64,000 nt of DNA from an uncultured Methanosarcinales archaeon (GCA_963843555.1 CAWJKV010000005.1:224001-288000), one strand, 5' to 3'; shown: positions 43,643 to 52,514, numbered from the stretch's first letter. Translations and numbers: made by a program. Notes: generated from the letters alone by a model not told the origin.

Positions 43643-44053
43643 CTAGATTAGCTGCACATTCCTGGTCGATTTGGCCTTCTCATACAGCTTTCTGTCCAGC
43701 GTCAAGAGTGGCACTTGCCTTCTCTCAGCCGCGGCCAGAAAGAGTGAGTCGTAGAAATCGGTCCTGGTCTCAACAGAGACGCTGTATGCCTCTATGGTCA
43801 GATCCTCTGCCCGGACGAGCTCACACGCCTCAGTGATAAAACTCTGGCACTTCCGAAAGGCCGCCAAGGTCAGGTCTTTATCTTCTCCGCAGAGGACGAC
43901 CAGTTTCCAGGCCACATTCCCAACTTCAGCGATTGCAAGGTCCAGGGTGATCAGGTCGGATTTTGCGGCTGCATCCAACGCCCTCATGGAGGCATCTTCT
44001 TTGAAGAACATGGCTGCGATCACACTTGAATCAAGGACTACTTCATATGGCAT
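43643..44053 (-). CDS. vapC: VapC PIN-domain toxin
   Basis: VVLDSSVI, EVGNVAWK, FYDSLFLAAA, LLTLDRKL. Confidence 0.92.
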   Translation of the reverse strand: MPYEVVLDSSVIAAMFFKEDASMRALDAAAKSDLITLDLAIAEVGNVAWKLVVLCGEDKDLTLAAFRKCQSFITEACELVRAEDLTIEAYSVSVETRTDFYDSLFLAAAERRQVPLLTLDRKLYEKAKSTRNVQLI

Positions 44054-44270
44054 CCCGATCCTCCCTGACCATCTCCGCTGCCCCGATTTTATTGGGGCTT
44101 TGGTTCGTCCACAGCTCTTTTGCCTCCGTCAGGAGCCTCTGCTTTTTCTTCTCCCGGACTATCCTCTCCACCGACTGCCTGATCTCAACCTGCCAGTTGA
44201 CGTCACTCATTTCATCCATCATCCGGCGAATACGACCGTCTATACGAATGCTGTAAACATTGGTGGACAT
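44043..44270 (-). CDS. vapB: VapB-type antitoxin (RHH)
   Basis: VYSIRID...VNWQVEIR...AAEMVREDRDA; overlaps vapC. Confidence 0.85.
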   Translation of the reverse strand: MSTNVYSIRIDGRIRRMMDEMSDVNWQVEIRQSVERIVREKKKQRLLTEAKELWTNQSPNKIGAAEMVREDRDAI

Positions 44271-45853: not shown

Positions 45854-46885
45854 GTGATTCCGATGGGTGGCGGTGTGTCTTATATTAAGAGGCTGCAAAA
45901 ACTGGCAGGAATGACGTTGATTGCGTCCCTGCTGGCAGCTCTCTATCTCAACCTGGTTTTAGGCATAGCACTGGCGGGCACAGAGACCGGCGAATTCTGT
46001 CCCACCTGCCCGGACTGGACCAACCTGGAAGGCTGGCTGGCCCAGAAGGAGGCCTATGAGAGAGCCCAGGGAGCAGGCCAGCCAAATGGACAGTCAAACG
46101 TACAGGCAACCGGCAATTCTGCAGCCGCAGCGCGGGCCGATCCGCCGAAAAAGGGCTATGCACTGCCCGAGCTCATCACCAGCCCTGCATCAATAAAGAG
46201 CGATCAGGTTATTCTGGACGTGAGGTCCAAACCGGACTACCTTTCCGGACATATCCCCGGCGCTAGAAGCCTGTACTGGAAAGATCTGCAAACAGATGGC
46301 GTTTTGGATCCATCCCGGGCCAAAGAGGCGCTGGGACGAGCCGGGGTGAACGAGAGCGACAGGCTCCTCGTCTACGGCGATTCCGGTGAGGGGGCAGCTT
46401 TCGTCTTCTGGGCGTTGAGCTATCTCGGGCATAAGGATGTTAGCCTGATTGACGGCGGCGCTGATGCGGCCCGGGATGCAGGAGTTGCTTTAACAACAAA
46501 TGCACCGTCTCTTGCGCCTACCAACTACTCCATCCATATCGTGCCATGGCTCCTGGCGACTTCCGAGGATCTGGAGAGCATGCTTGCAGAGGCTGATATT
46601 GGGATTGTGGATGCGCGTGACTTTTCTGAATACGGCAGGAATAGAATTAATAGATCTCTCAGTCTCTCTCTCGATAAAATCTATGAAGACTCCATGATCA
46701 AAGATGCCGCCACGCTGGAAGATCTGTTCGGGCGCCGCCTGGATGAATCAGGAACTGCCATCGTCTACGGCACACCGCAGGCTTACTCGCTCTTCTACAG
46801 CCTCAGGCTCATGGGCTATAATGCAACCCTGCTGGAAGGCGACTGGTGGAAAGAGACGAAATGGGCTGTGAGCAATGTAAGATAA
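45854..46885 (+). CDS. Exported tandem rhodanese-domain protein with N-terminal CPTC motif
   Basis: Signal/TM segment, GEFCPTCPDW, LDVRS..YLSGHIPGA, IVDARD. Confidence 0.8.
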   Translation: MIPMGGGVSYIKRLQKLAGMTLIASLLAALYLNLVLGIALAGTETGEFCPTCPDWTNLEGWLAQKEAYERAQGAGQPNGQSNVQATGNSAAAARADPPKKGYALPELITSPASIKSDQVILDVRSKPDYLSGHIPGARSLYWKDLQTDGVLDPSRAKEALGRAGVNESDRLLVYGDSGEGAAFVFWALSYLGHKDVSLIDGGADAARDAGVALTTNAPSLAPTNYSIHIVPWLLATSEDLESMLAEADIGIVDARDFSEYGRNRINRSLSLSLDKIYEDSMIKDAATLEDLFGRRLDESGTAIVYGTPQAYSLFYSLRLMGYNATLLEGDWWKETKWAVSNVR

Positions 46886-46947
46886 GCCCCATTCCACATT
46901 TTTTTATTTTGTACGTAGGGCGTTTGAACTTGTGAGCCAAGTGCTCC

Positions 46948-47908
46948 TCAAATATCCCTGAGGAGCGCCTTCACTGCCATTTCGATGGCCTCTGCCGATC
47001 CCAGCCGGGGCGTCCAGCCAAGCCTTTTGATCTTCTCTATGGAGAGCAGCATGACTTTCACGTCTCCCTTCCAGCCCCGGCCATCGACGCCGCCCGTATA
47101 ATCGTACTCGACATCCGTTGAGGCCCATCTGCTCCACAACTATGTCAGCGATCTCTGTCACATCCACGGAGTCGGTTGAACCTATGTTGAAGACATTGGT
47201 CTCGTCACCGGAGCCTTCCACAGTGTCTACCATGGCTTGAACACAATCCTTCACTTCCAGGTAGGACTTGCGCTGCTTGCCTGATCCCAGTATCTCCAGT
47301 CGCTCGGGATTTTCCCGCAATTTTCGGATGAAGTCCACCAGGACTCCGTGAGTGCCCCGCTCACCCACGATGTTGGCAAATCGATAGACCCAGGATTGCA
47401 TCTCGAAGGTGTGGCAATAGGAAGAGATCAGCGCCTCGCAGGAGAGCTTCGATGCGCCGTAAAGGGAGATGGGCAGCAGAGGGCCATAGTCCTCAGGTGT
47501 GGGCACCGTTGCCGCCTCGCCGTAAACTGTGGACGTAGAGGTGAATGCGATGCGTCGGACCCCATTCTTCCGCATGGCCTCCAGAAGATTATATGTGGCC
47601 TGCACATTTTGCTCCAGATGTACACTGGTGTTTTCTGCGCCCAGTTTCACATCGGGATTGGCGGCCAGATGAAAGACCAGATCCTTTCCTTCAATAGCTT
47701 TTTCCAGTATGCCGGCATCCTTCAGATCTCCTTCCAGCAGATGGAAATCCGGGTTGTCCTGGTGAGGGACCAGGAACTCTCTTTTTCCCGAGCTGAAGTT
47801 GTCCAGGACGGTTACTTCATTCTGCAAAAGCAACCTTTCCACGAGGTGGCTGCCTATGAAGCCTGCGCCACCTGTGACGAGGATGGATTGACCCTTGAGC
47901 ATCATCAT
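46948..47908 (-). CDS. NAD-dependent epimerase/dehydratase (UDP-glucose 4-epimerase-like); frameshift near 47115
   Basis: ILVTGGAGFIGSHL, FTSTSTVYG, YGASK; C-terminus GWKGDVK in the shifted frame. Confidence 0.92.
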
Positions 47909-48234
47909 AAGTAAATTCTCTTCAGGGTAATCAAGGTTGTGGACTGGCGTGGAGCAGTTCCCACCACATATGACCATATATGCACACTGTCTATAGATTG
48001 GGTTTTGACCATTTCTGGGGAGAAGCCACTTTTGGGCAAATCGATTTTTTTCTCATAATAAAATATTTTTAAAAAGAAATGCAATTAGTAAGAGAGATAC
48101 TGACGATCTGGTATTTGAATATAATTATAATTATTGTCTTTGGATGTCATAATACTTAAATAGAATCCCACCTGCTATACTAAGGCTAGAGATTTAGAGC
48201 TTAAGGTTCAAAGGATTAATGGTGAGGTTGACTT

Positions 48235-49977
48235 ATGAAAGTTGCAATAGTAGGAGCAGAACTGGAAGAAAACCTGGGAATGCGCTACATGGCCTCTTCT
48301 CTGGAAAGCAAAGGGCACGTGGTAGAGATCGTTCCCTTCAACACGGAATGTGATATTCAAAATGTCGTGCAAAAGGTGAACTCGCTCTCTCCCCAGATTG
48401 TAGGTCTCTCCATGGTCTTCACGGGCAGGGGCAGAGAGTTCTGCAATCTGGCCGGGGCTTTGCGGGACGGAGGCTTCCGGGGTCACCTTACTGCGGGTGG
48501 GCCTTTCGCCTCTTTCAACTGTGAGGCTCTGTTGCGCGATTTTCCTGCCTTCGATTCCATCGCCCTTGGCGAAGGCGAGACGCTCTTCTGTACCCTGGCT
48601 GAGCATCTGGATGATCTCTCTCTGGTTCCCGGCCTATGCTACAGAAAATCGGATGGATCTGTGGTCACAAACCCGACCATTAGCGAACAGGACGATCTGG
48701 ATTCGCTGCCTTTTCCCAAGCGCACCACCTTCCACTCTTACTTTGGCAAACCCATCGCCAGCATTCTCACCAGCCGGGGCTGCTGGAGAAACTGCGCCTT
48801 TTGCAGCATCAATGCCTGGTATGACCGCGTGGGTGGAATGAAGTTCAGAGTAAGAAGCGTCGACAATATAGTGGCGGAGATGAAGGAGCTCTACGACAGA
48901 TACAATGTGCGCATATTCAACTTCCAGGATGATAACTTCTTCTTGCCCGAAAAGACGAAGGCCCTGCATAGATTCGAGGCCCTGCGGGACAGGCTCAAAC
49001 AGGAGGGCGTGGAGGATATCGCCATCGCCATCAAGGCCCGCCCGGACAGCATCACCCGTGAGTCTATAAGCGTGCTCGACGAACTGGGCCTCTTCCGGGT
49101 TTTCCTGGGAGTGGAGAATGCTTCCGAGAACGGTCTACGTAACCTCAACCGCAAGCAAACCGTTGATCAATCCCTGAATGCTCTGCAGATCTTGAACGAC
49201 TTCGATGTGCACCTGGCCTTCAATCTGCTCATGTTCGAGCCGGATACGGTCATGGACGACCTGCTGGTCAATCTGAGGTTCATGGAGCGGCATCTGGATA
49301 ATCCCTTCAACTTCTGCCGGGCCGAGGCCCATGCAGGCACCGGCCTGGAAGCAAAGCTGAACGCGGAGGGGCGGCTCCTGGGCGACTACTTCGGGCTGGA
49401 TTACCGGCTCAAAGACCCGCAGTGCGAGGCGTTTCACCAGGTCGTCAACTACGCCTTCTTTGACCGCAACTTCAGCGACTACGGCCTGCACTACTTCAAT
49501 ATGCAGGTGGACTTCACCTACCAGCTTCTGCGGCGATTCTATCCCGAGGTGCTGACCGAGTCCCTGAGGGGTGCCGTGAAGAGCTTCATCAAAGAGACAA
49601 ATCTGGACACCTACAAGTGCCTCTGCCAGACCTACGACTTTATCGAATCGACGGACCCCGGCAACCGTCTGGCGCTGCAGGGCTTTGCCGGTGAGATGAG
49701 GATGATTGTAGACGAGGGAAGCAGGGGTCTCCACACTCAGGGCGAACAAATCCTGGATGCTCTGAACAATGCCTATGACCGCCGTGGATTGGGCGAGTCG
49801 CGGGTTATGTCAGCGCCAATAGCAAGCGTTGTCTCGCCCTACTTCGGCATTGGAGGACCCGAACAAGGTGCCTATTCACCGGGCTCCATGGGCCTTGTCG
49901 ATCTCTTCGGACTGACACCGGTGCCCATACCCTATCAGACATTCAAGTCCCAACTATCCCGGCAAGAGGGAAGGTGA
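48235..49977 (+). CDS. Cobalamin-binding domain radical SAM enzyme
   Basis: B12-binding domain (EENLGMRYMASSL, VGLSM, AGGPFAS, LGEGE), SRGCWRNCAFC, FQDDNF, FLGVEN, helical C-terminal domain. Confidence 0.93.
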   Translation: MKVAIVGAELEENLGMRYMASSLESKGHVVEIVPFNTECDIQNVVQKVNSLSPQIVGLSMVFTGRGREFCNLAGALRDGGFRGHLTAGGPFASFNCEALLRDFPAFDSIALGEGETLFCTLAEHLDDLSLVPGLCYRKSDGSVVTNPTISEQDDLDSLPFPKRTTFHSYFGKPIASILTSRGCWRNCAFCSINAWYDRVGGMKFRVRSVDNIVAEMKELYDRYNVRIFNFQDDNFFLPEKTKALHRFEALRDRLKQEGVEDIAIAIKARPDSITRESISVLDELGLFRVFLGVENASENGLRNLNRKQTVDQSLNALQILNDFDVHLAFNLLMFEPDTVMDDLLVNLRFMERHLDNPFNFCRAEAHAGTGLEAKLNAEGRLLGDYFGLDYRLKDPQCEAFHQVVNYAFFDRNFSDYGLHYFNMQVDFTYQLLRRFYPEVLTESLRGAVKSFIKETNLDTYKCLCQTYDFIESTDPGNRLALQGFAGEMRMIVDEGSRGLHTQGEQILDALNNAYDRRGLGESRVMSAPIASVVSPYFGIGGPEQGAYSPGSMGLVDLFGLTPVPIPYQTFKSQLSRQEGR

Positions 49978-50065
49978 AACCGGATCTGAGCGCCTGGCTT
50001 ATGGGGAAATCCTTGTTGAAAAAGTATCAAATTTATTTATTAATATGAGTACGGAGGTTAGTTTA

Positions 50066-51436
50066 ATGGAGAATAAAACGTTAGAGAATATGCGCTATTG
50101 CGTAGAGCCGGTTCACCCTATGGCGGTCAGGCTCTACAGCGATCTGGTGGCGATATACAGGTTCGTCAAAGATACCTACCAGACAGAGATAGATGCCGCC
50201 TTTGATAGGGCATCGCAGCAGATCGGCTTCGTGGTCACCACCACTGTGCCGGTGATGCTGGAAGTGGGAGAAGGCGGGGCCATAAAGAGCCTGAGCATGG
50301 GCTCGGAAAGCCTGAAGAACACACCCTTCGAGAAGGAGATAACTGCCGTTTTTGATGCCAAGAGAAAGGGAGAGAACAAGCTTGGCGTCTCCCCCGGAGT
50401 TTACAATCTGGCCCTATTCTGGTACGACGCAGTTAAGCTCAGGCTGAGGACGGACTGGATGGAGCCCGCCCAGCCGGTTTATCAGTTGCAGTCAGAGCTT
50501 ATGGGAATGAGACGGTCGCCTCAAAGTGCCCAGGCCATGAGCATGGCAATCCAATCCCATCATTGGATGGAGCCGGTCCATCACAGACCCTGGTGCGAAC
50601 CCGTTCATACGCCATGGATGGAACCGGTCCATCATAGACCCTGGTGTGAACCCGTTCATACGCCATGGACAGAGCCAGTCCACCATATGCCCTGGATGGA
50701 ACCTGTGCACCCGCATACGCCCTGGATGGAGCCGGTCCATTATCCAGGCTGCAGGCCGTGGCTGGAGCCAGCACACCCTGTCTTCCAGACGGCAGCAGAT
50801 CTGAAAAAGGCCGGTGAGGCGAAGACGTTTGAGCATACGGAACCTGTTCAGTACTTGAATAGAGTGAATCAGATAATCCTGGAGAGATCGATCCTGGTGT
50901 CGGCCATCGATGAGGTTTATCCGGAGCTGAAGCTGGGCGAGAGACTGAATCAGGCCCAGTATGCCATGTCTCCCACTCTTCCACTGCCACCACCGCGTGC
51001 AGCAGCCTGGCCCGGCGTCCGAGAGCCGGCGCATATGATGGCATATCAGTGGGCCCGTGAGCCCTTGCCTAATCCCTGGAGACAGGCTATGGCCGAGATC
51101 GCTCAGGTGCTGGAAAGATATGGACCTACACCTGAGCCGTGGAAAGGTCAGCTACTGTCTGAGATTGCGAGTGTTCTGGCCAGGTTCAGCTATGCAATGC
51201 TCAACCCCCAGCCGCTACCTCCACGCATGGCGGCCTGGCCTGGCGTCCGAGAGCCGGCGCATATGATGACGCCTTTCCAGTGGGCTAGTGAGCCACAGCC
51301 CAATCCCTGGAGGCAGATGAATTTCCCAGGAGTAAGAGAACCGGCGCATCAGATGGCAGGTATGCAGCCGGAGATGCCTCAGCAGATGCTATCCGAGATG
51401 GCTGCAGTGATGCGCAGATACGGCTTCCAGATTTGA
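50066..51436 (+). CDS. Repeat-containing protein (WxEP[VA]H x8, PGVREPAH x3); putative radical SAM substrate/precursor
   Basis: Long clean ORF (from 50045; GGAGGT SD before the ATG at 50066); the duplicated 51-bp unit is conserved at protein level. Confidence 0.85.
   Translation: MENKTLENMRYCVEPVHPMAVRLYSDLVAIYRFVKDTYQTEIDAAFDRASQQIGFVVTTTVPVMLEVGEGGAIKSLSMGSESLKNTPFEKEITAVFDAKRKGENKLGVSPGVYNLALFWYDAVKLRLRTDWMEPAQPVYQLQSELMGMRRSPQSAQAMSMAIQSHHWMEPVHHRPWCEPVHTPWMEPVHHRPWCEPVHTPWTEPVHHMPWMEPVHPHTPWMEPVHYPGCRPWLEPAHPVFQTAADLKKAGEAKTFEHTEPVQYLNRVNQIILERSILVSAIDEVYPELKLGERLNQAQYAMSPTLPLPPPRAAAWPGVREPAHMMAYQWAREPLPNPWRQAMAEIAQVLERYGPTPEPWKGQLLSEIASVLARFSYAMLNPQPLPPRMAAWPGVREPAHMMTPFQWASEPQPNPWRQMNFPGVREPAHQMAGMQPEMPQQMLSEMAAVMRRYGFQI
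50564..50776 (+). repeat. Coding tandem repeat array encoding eight W-x-E-P-[VA]-H units
   Basis: Includes a 51-bp duplication (50564-50614 / 50615-50665) that differs only at three synonymous positions. Confidence 0.95.
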
Positions 51437-51448
51437 AGGATGCCTGCG

Positions 51449-51495
51449 TTTGTATGCCCGACCATTGGGCATACAAATACCAATTTTTTCATTTT
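51449..51495 (+). terminator. Hairpin plus T-tract terminator ending the radical SAM/repeat-protein unit
   Basis: TTTGTATGCCC-N7-GGGCATACAAA (51449-51477) followed by TTTTTTCATTTTT. Confidence 0.75.
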
Positions 51496-51593
51496 TGAGC
51501 ATTAACGCCAGGATGATTCCTGTTCGTCATTTGATTAGCTCGCTAACATAACTTATTTATCGTAAGCCTTTGTGTTTAACCTGCGTGATATGT

Positions 51594-52514
51594 ATGGCAG
51601 GAAAAATGCTCAAGCTATCCTTGCTGCTCCTGGTGCTGTCTGTCTTTTGCAGCGGCGCACATGCGGCGGAAGGCGAACGATTGAAGCTGGCAACTACCAC
51701 CAGCCTGCAAGATACCGGACTCCTTGACAAGATCAAAGAGAAGTTCGATGAGAAGTACAACGTATCCCTGGATGTCGTCTCCGGCGGGACCGGCATTGCT
51801 CTCCAGTACGGAGAGCGCGGTGATGTTGACGTCCTCATAGTCCACGACAAGCCGAGGGAGCTGAAGTTTATAGAGGACGGGCAGGGACTGGAGAGAAGAT
51901 GCATTGCCTATAACTACTTCTATGTGGTCGGCCCGAAGGATGATCCAGCGGGCATCAAGGGCATGAATGCTTCACAAGCACTTGCTGCAATCATGACCAG
52001 GGGAGAAGCCGATCCCGCATCGGTGATGTTCGTCTCTCGAGGCGACAACTCGGGAACACATGCCCGCGAGAAGCTGCTCTGGAAGAATGCCGGTCTCAAC
52101 TACAGCCTGGTCAACAGTTCCGGACCCTGGTATGTCGATGCCGGCCAGGGCATGGGCGCCACACTGAACATTGCCAATGAGAAGCAGGCCTACACTCTGA
52201 GCGATATGTCCACCTTCATGGCCTACCAGGGCAATCTGACTCTGGTACCCTTGATTGGAGGCGGAGATGATCTCCTGAATGTTTACGTGGCCATGGCTGT
52301 GAACCCGGAGAAACATCCTGATGTGAACTGCGCTCTGGCTAATGAGTTCATCAACTACCTGGTATCTGATGAAGGCCAGGATCTGATAGCCAGCTATGGT
52401 ATGGAGAAATACGGCAAGCCTCTCTTCTCTCCGGCCAGGGGCAATTGCACCCTCATCGGCTGCTCAGATGGAGAGTGCGCAAAACCCGCGACCGCCACCT
52501 GTGCTGCAGCATAA
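51594..52514 (+). CDS. tupA: Tungstate ABC transporter substrate-binding protein
   Basis: LATTTSLQDTGLL, GTGIAL, FVSRGDNSGTH, GQGMGATL. Confidence 0.92.
   Translation: MAGKMLKLSLLLLVLSVFCSGAHAAEGERLKLATTTSLQDTGLLDKIKEKFDEKYNVSLDVVSGGTGIALQYGERGDVDVLIVHDKPRELKFIEDGQGLERRCIAYNYFYVVGPKDDPAGIKGMNASQALAAIMTRGEADPASVMFVSRGDNSGTHAREKLLWKNAGLNYSLVNSSGPWYVDAGQGMGATLNIANEKQAYTLSDMSTFMAYQGNLTLVPLIGGGDDLLNVYVAMAVNPEKHPDVNCALANEFINYLVSDEGQDLIASYGMEKYGKPLFSPARGNCTLIGCSDGECAKPATATCAAA

Follow-up and report, generated by a model that had tools for sequence, protein, structure and literature searches.

A predicted cobalamin-dependent radical SAM enzyme and an EP[AV]H-repeat protein form a conserved gene pair in archaea and bacteria: a probable enzyme with its own protein substrate

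The window analysed here is a stretch of 64,000 nucleotides (nt) from an uncultured Methanosarcinales archaeon (GCA_963843555.1 CAWJKV010000005.1:224001-288000), and all positions are counted from its first letter unless another locus is named. It carries a two-gene unit in which a gene for a radical S-adenosylmethionine (SAM) enzyme (gene 1) is followed on the same strand by a gene for a protein rich in short Glu-Pro-[Ala/Val]-His (EP[AV]H) motifs (gene 2, whose product and its relatives are called partners below). Judged from gene neighbourhoods across many genomes, the two genes form a functional pair, and they most likely represent an undescribed enzyme together with its own protein substrate. 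Checks of open reading frames (ORFs), Pfam domains, motifs and fold found both genes, the CxxxCxxC motif, the motif inventory, the AT-rich upstream region and the terminator as they had been described in a first-pass annotation of the window. The parts of the unit are as follows:

48051..48234 (+), AT-rich spacer upstream of gene 1
48235..49977 (+), gene 1, predicted cobalamin-type (class B) radical SAM enzyme, 580 amino acids (aa; P0002)
48265..48597 (+), B12-binding Rossmann domain of gene 1, residues 11–121 (PF02310, 51.2 bits, cut-off 32.1)
48781..48804 (+), CxxxCxxC, the radical SAM [4Fe-4S] motif of gene 1, reading C183-W-R-N-C187-A-F-C190
50045..51436 (+), gene 2, EP[AV]H-repeat partner, 463 aa (P0001), or 456 aa from the start at 50066
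50108..50452 (+), folded N-terminal alpha/beta domain of gene 2, residues 22–136 (predicted local distance difference test score, pLDDT, 80 to 97 over 21–130)
50564..50776 (+), eight tandem W-x-EP[VA]H units, residues 174–244, predicted disordered (pLDDT <50)
50861..50917 (+), conserved central helix LVSAIDEVYPEL, residues 273–291, directly after HTEPVQ (pLDDT 74 to 93 over 271–300)
51011..51034 (+), PGVREPAH unit 1, residues 323–330 (P323, E327, P328, A329 and H330 at least 90% conserved in 86 members)
51239..51262 (+), PGVREPAH unit 2, residues 399–406 (from the motif list)
51326..51349 (+), PGVREPAH unit 3, residues 428–435, followed by a conserved C-terminal helix ending in RRYGFQI
51448..51478 (+), terminator-like hairpin of 14 pairs with T-runs and a T-rich tail, which ends the two-gene unit

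The spacer in front of gene 1 has a G+C content of 0.38–0.40, compared with 0.52–0.59 within both genes, and is the presumed promoter region. A ribosome-binding site, GGTGAGGT, can be read in it immediately 5′ of the gene 1 ATG. A sigma-70 scan gave three sites against 2.6 expected and is uninformative, as the bacterial model is the wrong one for an archaeal host. No match to known RNAs, riboswitches included, was found at an expectation value (E) ≤0.1 in 47500–51700. The homologues of gene 2 begin at MENKTLENM and GGAGGT lies 4 nt 5′ of the ATG at 50066, and the true start of the gene is therefore probably at 50066 rather than at 50045. The hairpin at 51448–51478 has a folding energy of −22.5 kcal/mol (z −3.67); no comparable terminator-like site lies between gene 1 and gene 2.

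The coupling of the two genes was examined from both sides. A scan seeded by the partner, with one genome per species, gave 58 loci. An enzyme orthologue (55–71% identity) adjoins the partner in 53 of them, and in 52 of these 53 it is located upstream on the same strand. The order is reversed in one ANME-2 contig (L006, 208–3042), where the partner comes first and the enzyme second, again on the same strand. For loci in which both ORFs were called, with the enzyme in first place, the spacing ranges from a 56-nt overlap to a gap of 381 nt and is mostly below 200 nt. The loci come from Acidobacteriota, Geobacterales, Methanoperedens, ANME-2, Bathyarchaeota, Brocadia, Nitrospinae, Verrucomicrobiia, Chlorobium, Pedobacter and others. 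The majority are bacterial, Acidobacteriota and Geobacterales among them, and most belong to non-methanogens, so the term "archaeal", under which the system was first described, is too narrow.

Five loci lack an adjoining enzyme. Two of them are contig ends (L011 and L060), and the genome of L060 has the enzyme at the end of another contig. The remaining three are damaged partners: one is split into pieces of 162 and 73 aa (L010), one is without its first ~55 residues (L058) and one is a 105-aa remnant (L059). Every locus that has room for the enzyme and does not contain it thus has a damaged partner gene. Clustering of the 627 ORFs from the 58 loci revealed no third conserved gene, the next cluster being present in five loci at most. 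A 398-aa gene between the two genes in Geomobilimonas luticola (L043, 4637–5833, +) was considered as a third partner and rejected, since it is seen in no other of the 58 loci; by eye it resembles a lipoprotein-type alpha/beta hydrolase.

A metagenome scan seeded by the enzyme alignment confirmed 283 loci. In 75 of the best 80 of these, which include some near-duplicates, the partner is found directly downstream on the same strand, and in the other five the sequence ends 0–190 nt past the enzyme gene. Within the order of genome G080, 9 of 201 genomes carry an enzyme orthologue, with the partner adjacent in seven, 1.4 kb away in one, and the locus cut by a contig end in the ninth. In the order of G081 the enzyme occurs in 2 of 301 genomes, both with a partner. 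The proposal of the first-pass annotation that the two genes act as a pair is thus borne out by both scans. Independent occurrence of the two genes, which it had set beforehand as grounds for abandoning this proposal, was looked for in both directions, and the proposal was not refuted.

Within the genus of the window, an orthologue-level enzyme is present in 2 of 59 genomes, G000 (100% identity) and G022 (81%), and all other enzyme matches are paralogues of at most 33% identity. Intact partners, too, are confined to these two genomes. G065 has no enzyme and, of the partner, a 3′ remnant interrupted by in-frame stops (locus L079), and L059 likewise retains only a stop-riddled 3′ partner remnant; L059 and L079 may be one and the same genome. 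Their alignment to the window breaks off after 48050 and resumes at 51209, with 48051–51208 absent between syntenic flanks. A deletion has therefore removed spacer and enzyme gene completely, and the partner gene as far as about residue 388, and enzyme and partner were lost jointly in this syntenic relative. Because of the sparse and patchy occurrence of the pair and its high identity across domains, we infer that it is a horizontally transferred, self-sufficient accessory module.

Besides its B12-binding domain, the gene 1 protein has a Radical_SAM domain over residues 178–337 (PF04055, 67.6 bits, cut-off 29.5), and C183, C187 and C190 are invariant across 51 aligned enzyme orthologues. Outside this motif C361 alone is invariant in the same alignment, C70 and C135 are nearly invariant, and no second Fe-S (SPASM-type) cysteine cluster is conserved. 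By its sequence, gene 1 encodes a class B (cobalamin-dependent) radical SAM enzyme, for which cobalamin binding and use are predicted. None of the 25 NCBIfam families shown, of 32 matched, reaches its cut-off. The three highest scores are those of HpnR (97.9, cut-off 650), TIGR03975 (91.4, cut-off 281.85) and BchE (89.3, cut-off 481.35), and the curated cut-offs of HpnR, BchE, HpnJ, BzaD and other named class B equivalogs are not reached. The MgmA family TIGR04014 scores 65.8 bits, below its equivalog threshold of 360. Fifty orthologues from many phyla are 55–69% identical to the window enzyme and have generic or automatic public names. Among the anti-phage defence models of PADLOC, gene 2 had no match and gene 1 a weak generic one (candidate model PDC-M51A, E 1.2e-8).

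The AlphaFold model of the enzyme has a mean pLDDT of 87. Its C-terminal part consists of an all-helical bundle (residues 395–515), a disordered linker and a short conserved tail. In this last segment (49813–49977, residues 527–580) the linker 527–565 has a pLDDT below 50 and is followed by a short helix; P566 is invariant in the 51 orthologues and G559, Y567 and F570 are nearly so. A docking role is possible for the tail, at the partner or at the active site. The nearest solved folds are OxsB, MgmA, CysS, TsrM and TokK, and at 14–17% identity to every one of these solved relatives the enzyme constitutes a distinct class B subfamily on its own deep branch.

OxsB from oxetanocin A biosynthesis (PDB 5ul2-5ul4) is the best match both by profile (E 6e-18) and by fold (E 2.9e-22, template modelling score 0.63 on the query). 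It has the same layout of B12 Rossmann domain and radical SAM barrel, at 16–17% identity. OxsB contracts a nucleotide ring and has no protein substrate, whereas a protein substrate is proposed here, and we know of no repeated-motif partner for OxsB. The presence of the small-molecule enzymes OxsB, HpnR and BchE among the top-scoring relatives, with a peptide C-methyltransferase family second in NCBIfam, suits a different role for the partner. It could be an accessory subunit, either a His/Glu-rich metal or corrinoid scaffold or a structural or regulatory protein, while the enzyme acts on a metabolite, lipid or cofactor. We regard this as quite unlikely; one point against it is that the 58 loci contain no conserved third gene for a small-molecule pathway, and others come from the partner itself, as described below.

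Outside the window, at G000:C18:29500-38000 (L076), lies a paralogue of gene 1, a B12 radical SAM gene of 532 aa with 32% identity to it. Its neighbours are another B12 radical SAM gene (418 aa, on the opposite strand), a 130-aa ORF, a transporter-like gene and a 157-aa ORF that looks PqqD-like by eye. This is possibly a separate locus for a ribosomally synthesised peptide that is modified post-translationally (RiPP). G068 carries the same paralogue.

The gene 2 protein holds 12 EP[AV]H and two EPxQ motifs. In 20,000 shuffles of its sequence EP[AV]H was found 0.03 times on average and twice at most. Single motifs are CVEPVH at residue 19, WMEPAQ at 138–143 and HTEPVQ at 264–269. The DNA that encodes the W-x-EPVH array is itself tandemly repeated (50564–50740, period 27/51, with 86% matches at period 51), and the array therefore grew by recent duplication. 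AlphaFold, run on an alignment of 86 sequences, predicted the N-terminal domain (22–136) and the conserved helices with confidence and all motif stretches as disordered (pLDDT <50). The N-terminal domain is bordered by EPVH (21–24) and WMEPAQ and contains QIGFVVTTT, the most conserved block of the partner family. In the region of the central helix D289, L295 and L297 are invariant in the 86 sequences, and I288, E290, V291 and Y292 are at least 90% conserved. The C-terminal helix (443–458) has a pLDDT of 81–88.

No Pfam or NCBIfam family matched gene 2. When nine members of the partner family were compared with Pfam at E ≤1, there were four scattered single matches, none of them common to the members. 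A search of the gene 2 profile against PDB sequences gave nothing below E 0.46, and Foldseek gave nothing at E ≤0.001 when the model was compared with solved structures. VIA-align over 48,161 chains reached a best Z of 6.8, mainly for helical look-alikes of the C-terminal part. Residues 22–126 show a weak but recurrent likeness to TonB/TolA C-terminal domains (Z 6.0–6.2 in VIA-align, E ~1 in Foldseek, Atlas features 0.86–0.87), which might at best serve as a weak lead.

The partner family is small and sharply bounded, with archaea and bacteria both represented. Among 5.8 billion proteins searched there were 313 relatives within the length window used. In an exhaustive profile search of 1.84 billion representatives there were 179 clusters at 50% identity (E ≤0.001) and no wider superfamily around them. 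For the enzyme at least 853 clusters were counted versus 313 for the partner, two figures that are not comparable as length windows and sensitivity differ. Across the loci the partners are 230–550 aa long. The usual form has ~260 aa and ~7 motifs and is found in bacteria such as Geobacter, Geoalkalibacter and Syntrophorhabdales; the long partners (about 380–550 aa) are those of close relatives of the window genome, and the window protein is such an expanded archaeal form.

The order of the elements is conserved in the family: an N-terminal EPxH, the ~110-residue QIGFVVTTT domain, a W-x-EPxH directly after this domain, an EPxH/Q before the AIDEVYPELKL helix, at least one PG[VI]REPAH, and a C-terminal helix ending in YG. 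All of these family-defining elements align between the window partner and the bacterial members. No fusion of enzyme and partner was found among the 150 best of the 179 family representatives. A 525-aa protein (P0312) that was considered as such a fusion instead joins a multi-pass membrane-protein-like N-terminal part to the C-terminal two thirds of a partner, and may be a gene-call artefact or a remnant.

EP[AV]H had been singled out in the first-pass annotation as the motif that matters, and it is indeed the hallmark of the family, with 1225 copies in 261 partner proteins and fragments. Among 121 members there are 855 EPxH motifs (median 7 per partner, range 2–13), with Ala at position 3 in 656 and Val in 196. 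These motifs contain 855 of the 1309 His residues of the 121 proteins and could bind metal, as the accessory-subunit explanation would have it; the well-folded domain and the conserved helices, unlike a simple precursor peptide, speak for a subunit as well. The tolerance of the motif points in the opposite direction. One-off variants in the 261 partners affect Glu 8 times, Pro 3 times, position 3 16 times and His 101 times, with Gln as the replacement in 79 of the 101 cases, and E140, P141, E266 and P267 are invariant in the 86 aligned partners. Glu-Pro thus forms the immutable core of the motif, with His replaceable essentially only by Gln. This is the reverse of the pattern expected for a His-based metal site; the lower tolerance for change at Glu and Pro than at His is mild evidence for recognition by an enzyme and against a site built on His alone. 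A copy number of 2–13 that arises by tandem duplication is, moreover, common among substrates modified at many sites and would be strange for a stoichiometric subunit. Taken with the predicted disorder of the motif stretches, the near-invariance, copy number and tandem growth of the motif fit an enzyme recognition site.

Repetition of short motifs in variable number would also be consistent with a classical multi-core RiPP, in which EP[AV]H cores are modified, cut out by a protease encoded elsewhere and set free as small peptides. The second-best NCBIfam match of the enzyme, although far below its cut-off, is TIGR03975 ('RiPP maturation radical SAM C-methyltransferase'), which we take to be the PoyB/PoyC type. 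Against this stands the gene neighbourhood, as the surroundings of the pair in the 58 loci show no conserved protease, exporter or recognition-element protein. The usual marks of a RiPP cluster (a short leader-core precursor, a PqqD-type domain or RiPP recognition element, a protease or exporter nearby) are absent at the pair, and no signal peptide is obvious in the gene 2 protein, as judged by eye only. The motifs furthermore flank a conserved folded domain and adjoin helices kept across phyla, so that the whole partner, and not the cores alone, is under selection. We consider released peptides improbable. Since no protease, exporter or recognition element is conserved, a modified intracellular protein is the likelier product, in line with the earlier remark that neither a protease nor an exporter is adjacent.

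Our preferred interpretation, to which we assign a probability of roughly 60%, is that the partner is a cytoplasmic, mostly disordered protein whose EP[AV]H motifs are modified by the enzyme. From the observed domains, motif, cross-domain coupling and joint loss we infer the role of the partner as substrate, the residue touched and the type of reaction. In the proposed mechanism, the class B enzyme would use cobalamin and [4Fe-4S]/SAM to modify Glu-Pro-[Ala/Val]-His of the gene 2 protein post-translationally. The motifs, lying in disordered stretches beside helices, would be within reach of the enzyme, and the product would be a multiply modified cytoplasmic protein and not a secreted peptide. 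Class B radical SAM enzymes that modify proteins are known, with MgmA/QCMT and Mmp10 as examples (PMC11796369, PMC13469106, PMC8828468).

If the enzyme acts on the partner, C-methylation, at an unactivated carbon within the invariant Glu-Pro or adjoining it, is the likeliest chemistry, a choice we make tentatively and at clearly less than even odds. Methylation is reported to be what class B radical SAM enzymes most often catalyse (PMC11659888). An enzyme-substrate pair with another reaction at the motif (radical cross-linking, epimerisation, ring formation or rearrangement) appears unlikely. It is favoured by OxsB, the top structural neighbour, which does not methylate, and by the deep branch of the enzyme with its low identity to all solved relatives; it is disfavoured by the prevalence of methylation in the class and by the lack of a conserved SPASM-type second Fe-S cysteine cluster in the enzyme orthologues. 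It is also conceivable, if somewhat doubtful, that the enzyme installs a novel modification on Glu-Pro (or His/Gln) and thereby turns the partner into a functional polymer that could, for instance, bind metal or be redox-active.

Several observations weigh against the partner being a methylated substrate. Adjacency alone fits an accessory subunit as well as a substrate. The top match in both sequence and fold, OxsB, is non-methylating and acts on a small molecule; methylation can therefore not be read from homology. Neither protein has a RiPP recognition element or PqqD-type domain detectable with Pfam, and the C-terminal region of the enzyme is the all-helical bundle described above. A prediction of the complex (enzyme 1–525, partner 1–300, SAM and 4Fe-4S) scored 0.00, which is evidence neither way. 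Three metatranscriptome runs contain ~5% of the sampled words, a figure that says nothing on transcription or habitat.

A radical SAM enzyme encoded beside a ribosomal substrate with repeated motifs is an already known kind of system. Three-residue cyclophane enzymes work on repeated short motifs of a neighbouring precursor. The same is true of TvgB/TigE-type cyclopropylglycine synthases, where one radical SAM enzyme acts on many short motif copies in a neighbouring product (PMC10878394). Both of these groups are SPASM-type enzymes without cobalamin and have short, leader-bearing substrates, whereas the present enzyme is of class B and has no conserved SPASM cysteines. The PoyB/PoyC-type RiPP C-methyltransferases (TIGR03975) are similar in that a class B enzyme lies beside a ribosomal substrate that is modified at many sites. 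Compared with these systems, the present pair has no leader-core layout and no protease or exporter, and its putative substrate has 230–550 aa with folded parts.

The closest parallel in terms of a modified ribosomal protein that stays a protein is found in MgmA/QCMT (PDB 9ccb, TIGR04014), the glutamine C-methyltransferase of methyl-coenzyme M reductase (MCR), and in Mmp10, which acts on an MCR arginine; both are cobalamin radical SAM enzymes, according to the literature cited for them above. MgmA is the fourth-best solved fold match to gene 1 (E 9e-20), but at 17% identity. Both enzymes modify one site in a large enzyme, while the present one would act on a dedicated neighbour with 2–13 short motif copies. 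MgmA and Mmp10 are also tied to MCR, and the present pair occurs mostly in non-methanogens.

No published description of the enzyme-partner pair was found among the matches listed in literature searches on the motif, cobalamin radical SAM enzymes and RiPPs, and neither protein reaches a Pfam or NCBIfam family cut-off beyond the generic B12-binding and Radical_SAM domains. The pairing had not been recognised as a described family at first reading either, and that judgement holds. New here are the substrate family with its motif, the class B subfamily and the layout at protein level. What the window contributes is the expanded archaeal form with a fresh tandem array, a deletion scar, the decay of partners that lack an enzyme, and how far the motif tolerates change at each of its positions.

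Class B radical SAM enzymes catalyse reactions that rank among the most difficult in biology, and a protein substrate is known for few of them. In the present case the genome points to a probable substrate and, through a four-residue motif, to a probable site. The modification, if real, would be a new post-translational modification made by a new enzyme subfamily, possibly with a new type of class B reaction. The modified polymer could then matter to anaerobes of wetlands and sediments such as Geobacterales, Methanoperedens/ANME-2, Methanosarcinales-type methanogens and anammox bacteria. It would also raise the matter of the role of the partner in methanogens, methane oxidisers, metal reducers and Acidobacteriota of peat and soil.

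The unit had been placed between an epimerase gene and tupABC. The former is borne out on the upstream side:

46904..47977 (−), short-chain dehydrogenase/reductase (SDR) epimerase/dehydratase gene, upstream flank, identified by family match

The tupABC assignment holds in part. The downstream flank is an ATP-binding cassette (ABC) transporter gene set, for which TupA (the only NCBIfam match of the binding protein) and TupB (the top-scoring NCBIfam equivalog of the permease) are the best named matches, yet both remain under their equivalog cut-offs.

The epimerase/dehydratase gene looks frameshifted near its 3′ end, as family matches end around residue 287–297 of 357 aa. A 63-aa ORF in another frame (46948–47139, −) appears by eye to be the missing C-terminus and has no NCBIfam match on its own. 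In L059 the epimerase gene is also in two pieces. A neighbouring gene at 45854–46885 (+) encodes a 343-aa protein with two rhodanese domains and a hydrophobic N-terminal stretch; it is syntenic in L059, where it is apparently split into several ORFs. Further upstream, at 43643–44270 (−), two small overlapping ORFs of 136 and 75 aa resemble, as judged by eye, a PIN-type toxin with its antitoxin.

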